Positions 54,779 through 60,820 of a stretch of DNA of 64,000 nucleotides are shown in pieces. Under the pieces are notes generated by a model. It did no database searches. It was not told the origin of the DNA and saw only the letters and a program-made list of their open reading frames with translations. This DNA is from Escherichia phage GoldenSnicker: the sequence record OR896832.1; one strand, 5' to 3'. The translations under genes and the position numbers were made by a program. Each line of letters begins with the position of its first letter. The first letter of the stretch is position 1.

Positions 54779-55303
54779 TTAGTAGCCGCGTTCTTGACGG
54801 GCGAAGTTTTCAGCATTTTTCAGATAGTACAGAATAAAGAGTTCTTGAGCGTCAATACCCAGCGGGATCATCTTTGACAGAATGAAGTGGATCGCGTCCA
54901 CAAATTCAAATTTCACTTCAAGCTGATCTTCTGGTGACAGTTCAGAGAATTTACGCGCTCGCGCTTCCCCGTGGTTCTTTTTCCACATTTTCCAGATTGC
55001 ACTTGCATCTTTACCATTGGACATTCCACCCAGCGATGTGTAAAGCTCTCGTGTTTCGTCTGCGATAGCGTCATCCATCCGTTGCATCCAATCCAGCATT
55101 TCACCGCAAGTCTCTAGCTTAGTTGGATTTGGGACCCAATCAAATTTTTCGGATAATGCAACCTGCAAACCAGTTTGCATTTCGAGCATCACCTGAAACG
55201 GATCTTTACCTTCTGCAATAGCGTGATGATATGCGGCGATAGCCGCGTTAATATCTTTTTCGTTAACCAGACCAGCACAAGAATTAAATTCTGACATATT
55301 CAC
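54779..55303 (-). CDS. 56: dCTP pyrophosphatase (dCTPase/dUTPase)
   Basis: 174 aa; position before gene 61 and size as T4 gp56. Confidence 0.7.
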   Translation of the reverse strand: MNMSEFNSCAGLVNEKDINAAIAAYHHAIAEGKDPFQVMLEMQTGLQVALSEKFDWVPNPTKLETCGEMLDWMQRMDDAIADETRELYTSLGGMSNGKDASAIWKMWKKNHGEARARKFSELSPEDQLEVKFEFVDAIHFILSKMIPLGIDAQELFILYYLKNAENFARQERGY

Positions 55304-55311
55304 CTCATTAA

Positions 55312-56340
55312 TTAAAATTTACAATATTTCATAAACCGCATTTTAGCCATCAGACCTTGTACGGTGTTCTCTTTGATGTATTCCATGATCTGGTCGCGTG
55401 TAGCGCCCTCGTCCTGAATCATGGCGTTAACGTCTTTAGAATGCCACGGGCAGCGATCCCACAAAACAATCTTTTCCCCTGCATTGATAAACTTTTCCAG
55501 TCGGTGCATTGTATCGGCAGACCGTGGTTCCGCATCAAGTACAAACACTCGCTGATCAGGGAAAGGAATTTCATCTAATCCCAAAGTACCGCCAGTAATT
55601 GCACACCCGTTATCAATAAACAATGAATCGATCGGACCTTCTAAGAAATACACTGGCCTACTCGGATCGGCGCGTTCAAGACCATAGACCTTACTCGCTA
55701 ACTCATGAGTTTTAATCGTCATATATTTGGTCTTTCCGTAATCCTTTCTCAATGCTCGCCCCTGAATGGATTCTATCTTGTTCTCGCGGTTAAAGATAGG
55801 AATCACTAAACGCGGTTCAGGTTGTGGATTCTTGAAAGTATCAGCCTTAATGTGATTTGCTACCTTTTGCCATTCTCTCGTGAAATACAGAAGATCCCAT
55901 TTATCGTGGGGAATGCAACGATCACTGACATACTTTATTATAGGATGATTAGCCGGAAGAGTATCTAATCTCTCGCAGAAAGGCAATGTTTGCACTTTCT
56001 TAATCTCCGGCTTTTCTACCTTTTTCAGTGGCTTGAACGTGGTGTTCTTGTGGTCGCCTTGTTCCTTCCGTCGTTCCATAAGCCATTCCCTGAATAGGTC
56101 CGGCTTATATTGTTTAAGAAATTCACCTAACGGCTGATTGTAGTTACAGTTGAAACAACCACAACGCAAACTATCCTTATAGGTATAGATACGGAATCGC
56201 GCTTGAGTATGATTTTTCTTTGAGTCACCGCAGATCGGACAACTACAGACCAGCGTAAATGAGCTAGTATGCAACCGTTTAAAATTTCGTTCGCCGTATA
56301 TGGCTTTTTCCGCTATTTCATAATCTGCGTAGTAAATCAT
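55312..56340 (-). CDS. 61: DNA primase
   Basis: 342 aa, same as T4 gp61; zinc-binding CPICGDS...CFNCN and TOPRIM-like region. Confidence 0.85.
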   Translation of the reverse strand: MIYYADYEIAEKAIYGERNFKRLHTSSFTLVCSCPICGDSKKNHTQARFRIYTYKDSLRCGCFNCNYNQPLGEFLKQYKPDLFREWLMERRKEQGDHKNTTFKPLKKVEKPEIKKVQTLPFCERLDTLPANHPIIKYVSDRCIPHDKWDLLYFTREWQKVANHIKADTFKNPQPEPRLVIPIFNRENKIESIQGRALRKDYGKTKYMTIKTHELASKVYGLERADPSRPVYFLEGPIDSLFIDNGCAITGGTLGLDEIPFPDQRVFVLDAEPRSADTMHRLEKFINAGEKIVLWDRCPWHSKDVNAMIQDEGATRDQIMEYIKENTVQGLMAKMRFMKYCKF

Positions 56341-56349
56341 AATAACCTC

Positions 56350-56553
56350 TTATAGCTCAAATTTCATGAAAGTTCCTACACTTTCATTTTCATTCTCTCC
56401 GTTTTCATCTAAGCCAAATTTATAGACACTACCATCTGGCGATGTGTAAGAGAATACACGAAAACGGCCTACCGGGTCAAGTTCTGTAAATTCATATTCT
56501 TTTCCGGCTTCAAAAAGTGCATATGTGCTTTTAAGACATTTCATCGTAATCAT
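56350..56553 (-). CDS. hypothetical small protein
   Basis: 67-aa ORF; start overlaps upstream stop (ATGA). Confidence 0.4.
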   Translation of the reverse strand: MITMKCLKSTYALFEAGKEYEFTELDPVGRFRVFSYTSPDGSVYKFGLDENGENENESVGTFMKFEL

Positions 56554-56693
56554 TTAAGTGCCACCGACAACAGAATGAGAACTACACCAACATACATTGT
56601 GATCTCGGATAACTTTTCTGTTTTTGTTTTGTGTCCAGATAATCCGAAAACAACAACACCGACAATAGCGGACAGCAAGCCAACGATAAACAT
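56550..56693 (-). CDS. small two-helix membrane protein
   Basis: hand translation MFIVGLLSAIVGVVVFGLSGHKTKTEKLSEITMYVGVVLILLSVALK (47 aa); possible GTG start at 56708. Confidence 0.45.
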   Translation of the reverse strand: MFIVGLLSAIVGVVVFGLSGHKTKTEKLSEITMYVGVVLILLSVALK

Positions 56694-56700
56694 GATGATA

Positions 56701-56877
56701 CTAAGCACCGTCTTTCTCCTTTTTGCGTTTTTCTTTACCCGCTACACTAGGTCCACGATTGGTAATAGATCCGCTCGTTTCACCTGCTGCGATCTTCTCA
56801 GGATTGCCGCCAGCATCGCCAGCGGTCATATCTTCTTTGAGTTTATTTTCTTCAACAAACTGTTTAAATCCAATCAT
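56701..56877 (-). CDS. hypothetical small protein
   Basis: 58 aa, hand translated, Gly/Lys-rich; start overlaps upstream stop (ATGA). Confidence 0.4.
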   Translation of the reverse strand: MIGFKQFVEENKLKEDMTAGDAGGNPEKIAAGETSGSITNRGPSVAGKEKRKKEKDGA

Positions 56878-57251
56878 AGAATAATCTCTTTCAGTAAGTC
56901 AACAATCTGGTCTTTCGTCAGTTTATCCTGATTCTCTACAATCTTGATAACACAAGCGTTAACATCTTTGCGAGTCACTCGGGAGATCGTTTTAATACGA
57001 TGAAACGGTTCGTAGAAATATACTGCTTCATTATAGAGCGCAGCAATTTTTCGACGCATTTGATCTTTATCTGACAAGAAAACAAGTGCTGTTTTATGAC
57101 CTTCTACACCCGCCACGTTATATAGTTCAGCAACACCCCAGCGACCTTCCGGTTCAATCATTCCGGCGTGTTTACCGTCGATAAAAATAAGAATATCTCC
57201 GTTGAATGCGGTTTTGAATGCTACATCTTCCGGCGTAATCATATTTTTCAT
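56874..57251 (-). CDS. hypothetical protein
   Basis: 125-aa ORF. Confidence 0.45.
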   Translation of the reverse strand: MKNMITPEDVAFKTAFNGDILIFIDGKHAGMIEPEGRWGVAELYNVAGVEGHKTALVFLSDKDQMRRKIAALYNEAVYFYEPFHRIKTISRVTRKDVNACVIKIVENQDKLTKDQIVDLLKEIIL

Positions 57252-57281
57252 AATATCGTCTCCTTAGAGTTTCATTATAGA

Positions 57282-57917
57282 TCAAGCGAATGTAGAAAGC
57301 AAACGTTTTGTTTCTTTCAGTTGTCGTTCAAGATCTTTGCGTTTCTCTTTAAGTTGCATTTTAGCATTATTTCGCTGTTTTTCAACATCTTTATCAATGC
57401 TCTTATTCCAGTTATCAATATCAGAATAAGTTGGTATACCCAATTCTAGACCTAATGCGGTTGGATACAGGGTAACAGTCCATAAACCGCTAATCTTCTT
57501 AAATAGGTCGGGGTGTAGTGTACTATCTACATCTTCCGGTGTCAACTCTTTTTCTTCTTTCAGTGGTGGGATCTCGTCATATGGTTCCAGTGCATTTACT
57601 TTAATATCAGATACCTCATCAAAGAATCCGCGTACATCCGCAGGAAATACACAAGCAATTTCCCAACCGTGATCACGCAGAGAAGTAATATTTTTCACTC
57701 CCCCACCATGTGTGATGATTGATGTGACATTGCCATCAAGGTCCACCGAATTTACGAGAAATGGCTTATCGTCTGTCAGATCATTATAAAACTGTGCTTC
57801 GGCTGTAGTCATCTCCAGAAACAGATCTCGGATCGGACGACCATCAGGTGCGTTACCTTCCTTGAGAGTATAAAAGCGACTTACGATCCATTTTGGCGGT
57901 AAAGCATTAGCGATCAT
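57282..57917 (-). CDS. hypothetical protein
   Basis: 211-aa ORF between genes 61 and 41; similar in size to T4 61.2. Confidence 0.45.
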   Translation of the reverse strand: MIANALPPKWIVSRFYTLKEGNAPDGRPIRDLFLEMTTAEAQFYNDLTDDKPFLVNSVDLDGNVTSIITHGGGVKNITSLRDHGWEIACVFPADVRGFFDEVSDIKVNALEPYDEIPPLKEEKELTPEDVDSTLHPDLFKKISGLWTVTLYPTALGLELGIPTYSDIDNWNKSIDKDVEKQRNNAKMQLKEKRKDLERQLKETKRLLSTFA

Positions 57918-57967
57918 GTTATATCTCCTATCAAATCATTCACCAGCGCCCCGCAGGGCGCATTTTA

Positions 57968-59380
57968 TTAGAAAGTCATGTTATTTGCTAGCTCGTCGAG
58001 TTTTTCTCGTTTCTCGGCTTGCTGTGCGCTTTGTGGTTTAACTTGTGCATTCTCCTGATCTGCGATCTGGTTTGGTACTTCATACCAACGCTGATTGCCT
58101 TTTTTCACACCAACGTTAAACCGTGAATAATAGTTCTTATCACCGTAACGAGACTTGATCTGCTTCATGAGTTGGACGCCCATTTTAGCCAGGTCTTCGG
58201 TTTCGATAACACCCAACATAAAGTCGGCAGTAGCCGGAAGACCTGCTGATTCAGCGGTATCACTCATGTTAAGGTCGGAAGCATCCCAACCCGCGCGGGT
58301 AGTCTGTGCCGCAGTCCAACCAACAACATCCCACTTAACAAAAAATCCTCGCAGTTCTTCCGCAATCGCCTTAACTAGTGTGTAACTATTTTCAGAGTAT
58401 ACACGCAAGCGAGACGATGCGCAAATCCCCAGATAGTCAACAATCACAACATCAGGTTTAAACTGTTTCTTGAGTCGCAATTCATTCATTAACGCCTCAA
58501 AGTGATTGGAGTTCGCGCCACCAGTCGGATACTGCTTGATCATCAATTTTCCAACCGGACGATCTCCGATCTTCTTATTCTTAACACGCTTCATACGTGC
58601 GGAATATTCCGCAAAAGAAACATTACCATTATCCAATTCATCTAATGTAATGTCAAGCAAGTTTGCGTCGATACGTTTGGCTACGACATGCTCTGCCATC
58701 TCCATTGAGATATACAATACATCATAACCACATTCCATATAATCCGCAGCAAGAGAACATAATCCAAGCGATTTACCAACATTTACACCAGCAAGCAACA
58801 CATTTAGCGTTTTTCTTTCCGCACCTCCTTTCGTGATTTTATTCAACATCGGCAGCTTAAACGGGATCTTATTCGCCTTAGTCTGATATAGCAAGAATCG
58901 TTTTTCAAAGTCATTAAACCAGTCATGACCTACATCAGAATCAAACGTAATGGATAGTGCTTCCTGCATGATCTCAGGAATAGCACCCTCACTCGGCAAT
59001 TTCTTATTCTGTTTCTCTTTTGGTAGTTGTGCGTTCGCCTGAATCTCTAGCGCCCGTGACATTGCATTATACATGGCACGGTCACGAATAAATTTTTCGG
59101 TTTCCTTCATTAACCAATCAAGGTCTTCCGGTGTATTCTCAAGCGAATCAAGAAGAGTTTTAGCCCCTTCATATGTTGTCTGATTGCCTCTCTCCTTGTC
59201 TAAAGCAATCTGTAATGCAGTTGGCGTAGGAATGTTGGAATATTCGTCTACGTGCTTTTTAATCAGCTTATAAATCAGTTTTTCTTCGTCTTCGGTGAAG
59301 TAGTCCGCTTTAAGGTGAGGCCATACATTCGTAAAGAATGCGCCATTGTAAATCAACTGTGAAAAGATAGTTTTAATCAT
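57968..59380 (-). CDS. 41: replicative DNA helicase (DnaB-like)
   Basis: 470 aa; Walker A GVNVGKS; position and size as T4 gp41. Confidence 0.85.
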   Translation of the reverse strand: MIKTIFSQLIYNGAFFTNVWPHLKADYFTEDEEKLIYKLIKKHVDEYSNIPTPTALQIALDKERGNQTTYEGAKTLLDSLENTPEDLDWLMKETEKFIRDRAMYNAMSRALEIQANAQLPKEKQNKKLPSEGAIPEIMQEALSITFDSDVGHDWFNDFEKRFLLYQTKANKIPFKLPMLNKITKGGAERKTLNVLLAGVNVGKSLGLCSLAADYMECGYDVLYISMEMAEHVVAKRIDANLLDITLDELDNGNVSFAEYSARMKRVKNKKIGDRPVGKLMIKQYPTGGANSNHFEALMNELRLKKQFKPDVVIVDYLGICASSRLRVYSENSYTLVKAIAEELRGFFVKWDVVGWTAAQTTRAGWDASDLNMSDTAESAGLPATADFMLGVIETEDLAKMGVQLMKQIKSRYGDKNYYSRFNVGVKKGNQRWYEVPNQIADQENAQVKPQSAQQAEKREKLDELANNMTF

Positions 59381-59694
59381 ACATAGCCCCCAACTACACG
59401 CATAACAAAGGTCTTGAGTTTATACCAGAAAGTTTCTTTTTTCAACTTTTCTTCTGCTTCTTTGATCTGCGCGGTTAACGCCTTAATGACGTGTGGATAT
59501 ACCACATCACGATCTGACGGCGTGGAGTAGTCGACCACAATACCTTTAGTGTCTGGATCGTATTCAACATTATGAATATAGACAATATGATGCTCTCCCT
59601 CTTCATCAACAATTATCAATTCCTGAATAACTGTCTTCATTGCTTCTTGAATCAAGCCGTGTGCTTCTTCTAAACTTGTTGGTTTCTTATCCAT
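59377..59694 (-). CDS. gp40-like protein (head vertex assembly chaperone)
   Basis: 105 aa between 41 and uvsX; hydrophobic C-terminus; assigned by synteny. Confidence 0.4.
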   Translation of the reverse strand: MDKKPTSLEEAHGLIQEAMKTVIQELIIVDEEGEHHIVYIHNVEYDPDTKGIVVDYSTPSDRDVVYPHVIKALTAQIKEAEEKLKKETFWYKLKTFVMRVVGGYV

Positions 59695-59718
59695 AATATA
59701 ATCCTCTCTAGATATGAA

Positions 59719-59745
59719 AAAGGGGCACGTAGCCCCTTTACTACC
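59719..59745 (-). terminator. rho-independent terminator
   Basis: hairpin ggggc-tacgt-gcccc followed by UUUUU on minus strand, after uvsX. Confidence 0.55.
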
Positions 59746-59749
59746 ATTG

Positions 59750-60820
59750 TTATGCTAACATATCTTCGATTTCTTTGTCAACTGCTTCGTCGCTGATCAC
59801 TTGCCCCAGCTTATAATGATCGTTGATTGCTTCGTTAAACTTATCGTTTGTCAGAAGCGGTTTCCAGAACTCAATGCTATTGGTTTCTTTAGCACGGAAC
59901 TTGCGTTCTTCGGTTTCCATCTCTCCGGTCTCAGTATTCAGGATTGAACGAGAATACCAGCCGTTTGACGGTTTCACTACCCAACCTAACTCTACAGCCA
60001 ACTCCAGCAAACCGGAATAAGGATCGATGCCACCGCTAAATGTTACGCTAATCGGGAACTTAGATTTTTCTTTAACGGTTCGTGATTTTTCCGCATTCAG
60101 GATAAAATCATAACCAGTAATTTCGGTTCCTTCTTTCTGCTGACGACGACCAATAATGAAAACTTCATTGGCTGAATACATCGCGCCCGTACCGCCGGAC
60201 ATAACGGTCTTACTAAACATTTCTTGTGTTTCGTAAGTGTGGTTAATAGCGATGCACGGGATATCATTCATAGTCAGATATGGCGTCACCATACGGAACA
60301 AGCCTTTAAGTGCTTTAGCTCGCGTCATATCCTGTGCAGATTTCTCATTAATCGCGTCTTCAACTTCTTTTTTACTTGCTAAGTTACCGATTGAGTCAAT
60401 AAAGATGATCACTTTATCTTCACGGGTAATTTGCTCAAGCTGGTTCATGATTTCAAATTTAAGTTCTTCGATGTTCTTGATTGGAACATGCACCACGCGA
60501 TCAGGGTCTACACCCATAGACTCCAGATATGCGGAAGTAATACCAAACTCAGAATCAAAGAACAAGCACGCCGCATCAGGATTCTGTTTCATGTATGCAC
60601 TAACGCAAGTTAATCCCATGTTTGATTTAAAGTGCTTAGACGGACCAGCAAAGAAAATCAGACCAGATTGAAAGCCTTTTTTAAGATCACCTGAAAACGC
60701 AATATTCAGCATCGGGATCTTAGTGCGAGTATTTGTTTTTTCGTTAAAGAAGCTGGATTTAGACAGTACCGCAGTAGTTTTCAGGGTAGAGTTCTTTTTC
60801 AGTTTTTCCAGTACAGACAT
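59750..60820 (-). CDS. uvsX: RecA-like recombinase UvsX
   Basis: 356 aa; Walker A GPSKHFKS; colinear with T4 UvsX. Confidence 0.85.
   Translation of the reverse strand: MSVLEKLKKNSTLKTTAVLSKSSFFNEKTNTRTKIPMLNIAFSGDLKKGFQSGLIFFAGPSKHFKSNMGLTCVSAYMKQNPDAACLFFDSEFGITSAYLESMGVDPDRVVHVPIKNIEELKFEIMNQLEQITREDKVIIFIDSIGNLASKKEVEDAINEKSAQDMTRAKALKGLFRMVTPYLTMNDIPCIAINHTYETQEMFSKTVMSGGTGAMYSANEVFIIGRRQQKEGTEITGYDFILNAEKSRTVKEKSKFPISVTFSGGIDPYSGLLELAVELGWVVKPSNGWYSRSILNTETGEMETEERKFRAKETNSIEFWKPLLTNDKFNEAINDHYKLGQVISDEAVDKEIEDMLA

Follow-up and report, generated by a model that had tools for sequence, protein, structure and literature searches.

Between the gene 41 helicase and the gene 61 primase of Escherichia phage GoldenSnicker (sequence record OR896832.1), five open reading frames (ORFs) on the minus strand occupy positions 56350-57917 of the 64,000-nt stretch of DNA that we analyzed (the window). 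On balance, we favor reading them as a cassette of non-essential early accessory genes, the positional counterpart of the T4 dmd-tifA-sp-adfA island with unrelated cargo, that most likely serves host interaction or phage-phage exclusion. We lean this way because of the narrow distribution of the genes, the mobility of ORF017c, the cassette behavior of ORF018c, the frameshifts seen in isolates G2494 and FL15, and the position shared with the T4 island. Four of the five genes are either restricted to the lineage or horizontally common to unrelated phages, and only 61.1 is common to T4. The genes and their flanks are as follows.

57968-59380, minus strand: gene 41 replicative helicase, upstream flank; 470-amino-acid (aa) ORF, gp41 by the RB49 annotation
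57282-57917, minus strand: dc2 (RB49 gene name), 211 aa
56874-57251, minus strand: dc1 (RB49 gene name), 125 aa
56701-56877, minus strand: gene 61.1 homologue (RB49 g61.1), 58 aa
56550-56708, minus strand: ORF018c, predicted two-helix membrane hairpin, 52 aa from a GTG start or 47 aa from an internal ATG
56350-56553, minus strand: ORF017c (RB49ORF017c), small acidic protein, 67 aa
55312-56340, minus strand: gene 61 primase, downstream flank; 342-aa ORF, gp61 by the RB49 annotation

By nucleotide identity, the window belongs to an RB49-like Krischvirus. The 1.9-kb stretch around the five ORFs is 99.5% identical to Krischvirus RB49, and 58 phage records match it at 90% identity or more, all of them RB49-like coliphages and Shigella phages. 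The RB49 GenBank record gives the same genes on the minus strand, in order of transcription g41, dc2, dc1, g61.1, RB49ORF018c, RB49ORF017c and gene 61. All five have been annotated before in RB49-like phages, as named or hypothetical genes. An initial annotation of the window, made from the letters of the DNA, had described a chain of five small ORFs in this interval. The five are present and the lengths that it gave for four of them (211, 125, 58 and 67 aa) are right; the remaining one, put at 47 aa, should be 52 aa from its GTG start. Its description of the ORFs as linked by ATGA or TAATG overlaps was right in part. The start of 61.1 lies on the dc1 stop and the start of ORF017c on the ORF018c stop, both as ATGA, and no gene border of the cassette has a TAATG junction. 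The other links are an 8-nt overlap of 61.1 with ORF018c (GTGCTTAG), if the GTG start is used, and two spacers, one of 30 nt between dc2 and dc1 that carries AAGGAG and one of 9 nt between ORF017c and gene 61 (TAAGAGGTTATTATG).

In T4, the interval between 41 and 61 encodes dmd (61.5), tifA (61.4), sp (61.3), adfA (61.2) and 61.1. The initial annotation had placed 61.1-61.5, including sp and dmd, in this interval; the T4 annotation agrees and its argument from synteny holds. Srikant et al. report that Dmd inhibits RnlA, TifA inhibits ToxN and AdfA inhibits DarT, and proposed that the T4 region may be an anti-toxin-antitoxin (anti-TA) island (PMC9391042). The genes of the island are non-essential host-interaction genes (PMC9391042). 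The cassette of the window resembles it in the helicase-primase position, the strand, the small and tightly packed genes and the shared 61.1, but no similarity of dc2, dc1, ORF018c or ORF017c to the T4 proteins Dmd, TifA, Sp and AdfA could be detected. When the five ORFs were compared by blastp with T4 61.1, 61.2, Sp, 61.4 and Dmd, a match was found for 61.1 only. None of the five matched the PHROG families of AdfA (3781), Sp (1586), TifA (2375) or Dmd (2102) by hmmscan. Alignment of the family profiles with hhalign to T4 AdfA, Sp, TifA and Dmd, each represented by a single sequence, which limits the sensitivity, gave probabilities of at most 1.4% for TifA and AdfA, 0.5% for Sp and 0.2% for Dmd. 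Homologues of Sp, Dmd, TifA and AdfA were also not found elsewhere in the 64-kb window; one tblastn match to Sp (E 0.019) lies inside gene 41 and is spurious. Scans of the five ORFs against Pfam, NCBIfam and PHROGs returned only their own families, which have no assigned function, and compositional matches of the hairpin.

These searches bear out the view of the initial annotation that none of the ORFs could be matched to sp or dmd, with blastp, hmmscan (PHROGs and Pfam) and hhalign all blank. It overlooked that the 58-aa ORF is a gp61.1 homologue with 49% identity. It had also proposed a profile comparison with Imm. No Imm family is listed in the Pfam scan at E <=1, a collection that should include Imm, though T4 Imm itself was not compared directly.

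The helicase-primase site, judged from gene order, is variable across T4-like genera. Aeromonas phage 31 (L019) has a 61-aa gp61.1 as the sole gene between 41 and 61, and S16, Bp7 and K65 carry sp and small ORFs there. The region described here would be the Krischvirus (RB49-type) version of this variable stretch. Wholesale replacement of the proposed T4 anti-toxin island in a sister genus supports a site that collects exchangeable host-interaction cargo.

Among the phages of our collection, dc2 and dc1 are found only in the 58 Krischvirus records. Beyond sequences that are nearly identical, a word-indexed search of 5.8 billion proteins added just a few more, with 54-74% identity. An exhaustive HMMER search, run with a concatenate of dc2, dc1 and ORF017c against 1.84 billion representative proteins, gave 13 matches in total: seven to dc2 (down to 24% identity, one a fragment), two to dc1 and four to ORF017c. 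Outside the Krischvirus records, dc2 has six distant metagenomic relatives. By hmmscan, Dc2 falls in PHROG 16187 (E 3e-147) and Dc1 in PHROG 16174 (E 5e-86). Profile searches of the PDB sequences with the Dc2 and Dc1 alignments returned nothing, no paralogue of either was detected among the ORFs of the window by hidden Markov model (HMM) searches and hhalign, and in the literature we found no paper on the function of dc1 or dc2.

An AlphaFold2 (AF2) model of Dc2 built on a shallow alignment had a predicted local distance difference test score (pLDDT) of 53 and was unusable. The prediction was rerun on a chimera of Dc2 and Dc1 with the distant homologues included, which raised the overall pLDDT to 71 (about 85 for the Dc2 N-domain, 71-90 for Dc1, and below 50 for the linker and middle part of Dc2). 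In this model, the 211-aa Dc2 has an acidic N-terminal alpha/beta domain (approximately residues 10-102) and ends in a long C-terminal helix; the linker and middle part between the two are modeled with low confidence. The 125 aa of Dc1 form an N-terminal beta meander followed by four helices. Foldseek found no match to the chimera in the PDB at E <=0.001, with TM-scores of 0.24 or lower; its top matches, ThermoDBP-RP2 (4psn, E 0.05), RAD52 (E 0.14-0.6) and OspA, were rejected as insignificant. In the BFVD, Foldseek returned Dc2 and Dc1 themselves and many uncharacterized proteins of T4-like phages at E 1e-5 to 1e-2, though which part of the chimera (Dc2 or Dc1) each match aligns to was not discernible. 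The phages concerned are Krischvirus, with other proteins too, and phages of Aeromonas, Acinetobacter, Edwardsiella, Proteus, Serratia, Yersinia and Klebsiella. PHROG 5347 also gave weak, repeated matches to the Dc2 N-domain, from the Dc2 of the window and four distant family members (E 3e-4 to 0.01). Because of the BFVD matches and the repeated PHROG 5347 matches, the modeled Dc2 N-domain is probably a member of a broad, uncharacterized fold family of T4-like phages.

In the main alternative, these two proteins, perhaps with ORF017c, would instead be Krischvirus-specific accessory factors of the replisome or of recombination, expressed with the helicase and primase as their partners and acting, for example, in primosome loading or regulation or in single-stranded DNA (ssDNA) binding. 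We consider this unlikely. The genes do lie between 41 and 61 on the same strand and are found in every Krischvirus record, dc1 is under strong constraint (dN/dS 0.09), and the best, non-significant PDB folds, ThermoDBP-RP2 and RAD52, are ssDNA-binding or annealing proteins. However, none of those folds reaches E 0.001 or a TM-score above 0.24, and other T4-like phages, including Aeromonas phage 31 and T4, have the same conserved replisome without dc2 or dc1. The apparent place of the Dc2 N-domain in a broad fold family of uncharacterized T4-like phage proteins also speaks against it, as does a dc1 frameshift in the viable isolate FL15. In FL15, the loss of 1 nt cuts Dc1 short after about 20 residues; this was seen in one record only, and an error in sequencing could account for it. 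The deletion falls in the N-terminal third of the gene, where JSE and FL15 also have a mosaic allele (57095-57215, minus strand) with 77-85% nucleotide identity as opposed to about 98% elsewhere.

ORF018c was described in the initial annotation as a small product consisting almost entirely of two hydrophobic helices, and its hydropathy agrees. The grand average of hydropathy (GRAVY) is 1.51, with hydrophobic stretches at residues 1-23 and 36-50 flanking the loop GHKTKTEKLSE. We take the GTG at 56708 as the correct start, giving 52 aa, because AGGAG lies 7 nt upstream of it, because the second allele, in GEC-3S and JSE, has ATG at this codon and Val in place of the internal Met from which the 47-aa form would begin, and because PHROG 18360 has 52 positions that align to residues 1-52. 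With seven Krischvirus versions aligned, the segment at 56550-56735 has 65-78% nucleotide identity in GEC-3S, JSE and G2494 while its flanks have 98-100%. By this pattern ORF018c is a discrete hypervariable cassette. The second allele is of the same length, is likewise hydrophobic and retains the loop motif FGLSG(H/Y)KTKTEK(L/I)SE. In G2494, the frame is destroyed by a 14-nt and a 1-nt deletion, again in a single record where a sequencing error is possible. L018, a divergent metagenomic relative on a 3.1-kb Logan contig (SRR8048117), encodes a tandem pair of two-helix peptides (1564-1897), each about 50 aa long and diverged from the other, at the position of the single hairpin of the window.

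On the accessory-gene reading, the 52-aa product would act in the inner membrane, inserted as a hairpin whose Lys-rich loop faces the cytoplasm. Its likeliest role would be to block the entry of superinfecting DNA or to neutralize a membrane-bound host factor, and the repeated allele replacement and duplication would mirror an arms race. Like T4 Imm, a small inner-membrane protein for immunity to superinfection, ORF018c is predicted to be a small phage membrane protein from an early region. Imm has a two-helix architecture and is 83 aa long, compared to 52 aa for ORF018c.

The same architecture, a pair of hydrophobic helices joined by a short loop with charged residues, all within about 50 aa, could also suit a peptide that sets lysis timing or depolarizes the membrane, such as a holin, an antiholin or a toxin-like peptide. 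Profile scans with ORF018c gave only compositional membrane matches below threshold, among them the phage holin family TIGR01673 (E 0.095) and SLATT (E 0.18), with ten weak matches of this kind in Pfam at E <=1. Such matches are far under the curated cut-offs and typical of hydrophobic composition. A role in lysis appears improbable, as the gene is in a replication operon away from the lysis genes, is frameshifted in G2494, and encodes a second helix with only about 16 hydrophobic residues.

ORF017c belongs to PHROG 9181 by hmmscan. Homologues with 46-60% identity are encoded in 14 records of phages other than Krischvirus, the majority of which have genomes near 50 kb. The three that we inspected are Drexlerviridae of the Tempevirinae (L014, 3004-3195; L015, 3004-3177; L016, 1553-1744), where the homologue lies among small early genes near a polynucleotide kinase. 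In the Hafnia phage Pocis76, it adjoins a gene annotated as an anticodon nuclease activator. This distribution indicates that ORF017c has probably been exchanged horizontally between phage families, including the T1-like siphoviruses. We also considered a conserved membrane-peptide partner beside the Drexlerviridae homologues, which proved inconsistent: Pocis76 has an unrelated 38-aa peptide with a single helix and JohannLBurckhardt has none. More speculatively, ORF018c and ORF017c together could be a new exclusion or counter-defense pair.

We compared substitution rates in the five ORFs with those of L018 and JSE. Against L018, dN/dS is 0.26 for dc2, 0.09 for dc1, 0.19 for 61.1, 0.46 for ORF018c and 0.15 for ORF017c, with dS of 0.8-2.2; against JSE, the range is 0.12-0.39. 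L018 also keeps the gene order, with 41, a Dc2-like gene, a Dc1-like gene, 61.1, the hairpins, an ORF017c-like gene and 61. Because the ORFs are conserved in 58 phage records and have dN/dS of 0.09-0.46 against a divergent relative, they are beyond chance, and by these rates all five are real genes under purifying selection. The 52- and 67-aa ORFs are short, and several records leave ORF018c without annotation, giving four hypothetical proteins and not five, but the comparison with the second allele and the dN/dS values effectively refute a reading of the two as chance frames or annotation artefacts: synonymous change far exceeds non-synonymous change (dS 1.16 and dN 0.27 for the ORF018c cassette against JSE; dN/dS of 0.23-0.46 for ORF018c and 0.12-0.15 for ORF017c), the diverged ORF018c allele retains frame, length, loop motif and start codon position, ORF017c has homologues in another phage family, and both ORFs have Shine-Dalgarno (SD) sequences or coupled starts.

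The five genes would be co-transcribed with 41 and 61 early in infection and partly coupled in translation. We infer early co-transcription because of the layout, the GGAG-containing SD sequences and a near-consensus promoter inside gene 41. GGAG is present in three SD sequences of the cassette, with GGAG-type ribosome-binding sites in the spacers, and dc2 has AGGAG 8 nt upstream of its start. Two further features lie upstream of dc2.

58628-58656, minus strand: predicted sigma-70-like promoter, TTGACA-17-GATAAT, inside gene 41; 11 of 12 consensus positions
57946-57961, no strand assigned: GC-rich hairpin, GCGCCC-(4 nt)-GGGCGC, within the 50 nt that separate gene 41 from dc2

The RB49 annotation has a hypothetical early promoter inside g41, which we take to be the same site. 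Early transcripts that extend into the cassette may start at this predicted promoter. Scans of the region for promoters and terminators gave counts not above the shuffled expectation, and a scan of 55000-60000 against Rfam matched no RNA family. The hairpin is terminator-like on the plus (non-coding) strand only (GCGCCCCGCAGGGCGC then ATTTTATT), and the coding strand has no T run after the stem-loop. The 58-nt stretch around it has a folding energy of -14.9 kcal/mol (z -2.06), and a 'terminator' is annotated at the matching site in G2248 and G37-3.

Comeau et al. (Krisch and co-workers) described the hyperplastic regions of RB49 and phi1 as adaptive cargo swapped at promoter-stem-loop elements (PeSLs) (PMC4122927). 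The cassette is similar in having variable cargo between conserved core genes with a G/C-rich stem-loop beside it. In a PeSL, the stem-loop is followed by a near-consensus sigma-70 promoter, an SD sequence and a start codon. However, the spacer between gene 41 and dc2 has the stem-loop only and is too short for the defining promoter: about 28 nt separate the stem-loop from the dc2 ATG, and no promoter match was reported there. The allele swaps seen here, of ORF018c and the dc1 N-terminus, also differ in having no PeSL at their borders.

The accessory genes would be directed at the host or at competing phages and not at core replication, with exclusion or antitoxin roles suggested by their position and evolutionary behavior. 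Several points weigh against this. No member of the cassette resembles a characterized anti-defense, antitoxin or exclusion protein in sequence, profile or fold. Expression timing and co-transcription are inferred from the layout. Each of the two 'natural knock-outs' comes from one record and might be due to an error in sequencing. The dN/dS of 0.09 in dc1 and the presence of the whole set in 58 of 58 Krischvirus records would also fit a genus-specific housekeeping role. Synteny with the T4 island is weak evidence taken alone, because variable regions gather unrelated cargo. Nothing points to a novel type of system, and as found the cassette matters little, its products being hypothetical proteins in 58 sequenced RB49-like phages. 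Its practical use is a narrowed set of candidates for Krischvirus counter-defense or exclusion, namely the membrane hairpin, which is diversifying, and the small acidic protein that T1-like phages also encode. Krischvirus phages are common among E. coli phage isolates, and several were isolated on pathogenic E. coli strains.

The gene in common with T4, 61.1, has a connection of its own with the capsid. The 58-aa product is 49% identical to T4 gp61.1 by blastp (E 3e-18) and matches PHROG 1823 over residues 1-56 by hmmscan (E 5e-24), so that by sequence its homology to gp61.1 is unambiguous. It has the core motif of the family, E-D-M-(V/T)-A-G-D-x-G-G-N-P-E-x-I-x-x-G-x-T-S-G-x-(V/I)-x-N-x-G-P, together with the basic tail, the small size and the M-x-x-F-x-x-F start, but differs in a five-residue insertion (NKLKE) ahead of the motif. 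It also differs in place: two genes, ORF018c and ORF017c, separate it from gene 61 in the same operon and orientation, whereas in T4, Aeromonas phage 31, Bp7 and K65 the gene adjoins gene 61. By tblastn, gp61.1 matches 1440 phage records. Additional matches were to gene 23 in Aeromonas phages and to a second site in several Krischvirus records.

We compared gp61.1 with gp23, using three gene 23 sequences.

Gene 23 of RB49: L008, 279-1865
Gene 23 of T4: L009, 46-1611
Gene 23 of PX29: L005, 1827-3434

With E-values calculated for a five-sequence database, blastp aligned gp61.1 with residues 62-100 of RB49 gp23, 63-101 of T4 gp23 and 59-110 of PX29 gp23 at about 50% identity. Reciprocally, gp23 N-termini match the gp61.1 family, PHROG 1823, at E 8e-12 and 5e-10. 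Among the PDB sequences, gp61.1 matched only T4 gp23 and mature gp23* (residues 4-36; E 1e-3 to 3e-3). By these alignments, gp61.1 is homologous to the segment of gp23 (approximately residues 55-101) that spans the cleavage site for maturation by gp21. When ten gp61.1 forms were aligned with four gp23 sequences, the column of gp23 Glu65 had Glu in all 14, and the position two residues earlier was hydrophobic in all 14. The gp21 protease has the specificity L/I-x-E (PMC9026906), which this conserved hydrophobic-x-Glu site fits. In the literature, we found no paper on the function of gp61.1 or on its similarity to gp23.

The start of gp61.1 also resembles a capsid targeting sequence (CTS). The first ten residues are MIGFKQFVEE in the window and MKTFKEFIKE in T4 gp61.1, compared to MKTYQEFIAE in the CTS of the T4 internal proteins (IPs) IPII and IPIII; the short forms of gp61.1 have the start consensus M-(K/I)-x-F-x-(E/Q). 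In the CTS, positions 4 and 7 are reported to be important for targeting and positions 8 and 10 for processing (PMC9026906). The protein of the window has an aromatic residue at 4 and 7 (F4 and F7), a hydrophobic residue at 8 (V8) and Glu at 10 (E10). Compared with IPII and IPIII, gp61.1 thus conserves the critical leader positions 4, 7, 8 and 10, and its hydrophobic-x-Glu site aligns with the cleavage site of gp23. It is unlike the T4 IPs in being encoded in a replication operon and not at the IP locus, and its packaging and cleavage are only predicted. The long forms of gp61.1 (154-166 aa) are unlike the IPs in having the motif at the C-terminal end with no N-terminal leader ahead of it.

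Taken together, these similarities allow a reading, speculative and in our judgment doubtful, in which gp61.1 is a free-standing copy of the gp23 cleavage-site segment with a CTS-like leader, is carried into the prohead, cut by gp21 behind its conserved hydrophobic-x-Glu site, and either occupies a site meant for the gp23 N-arm or is injected with the DNA as the IPs are. If true, gp61.1 would be an unrecognized capsid-associated peptide encoded inside the primosome operon. The link between gp61.1, gp23 and capsid targeting is a specific, testable hypothesis for a very widespread, uncharacterized gene of T4-like phages.

In the long forms, found in RB43 (L020, 565-1065), PMBT1 (L026, 377-865), Acinetobacter phage Meroveus (L021, 583-1059) and S16 (L023, 607-1071), a conserved and uncharacterized N-terminal domain of about 100 aa (PHROG 2086) precedes the gp23-like motif. 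In several records, including ON286974 (W115_51), MN709127, MN894885 and OP114734, the 58-aa homologue is labeled 'major capsid protein', an annotation artefact because of the local similarity to gp23.

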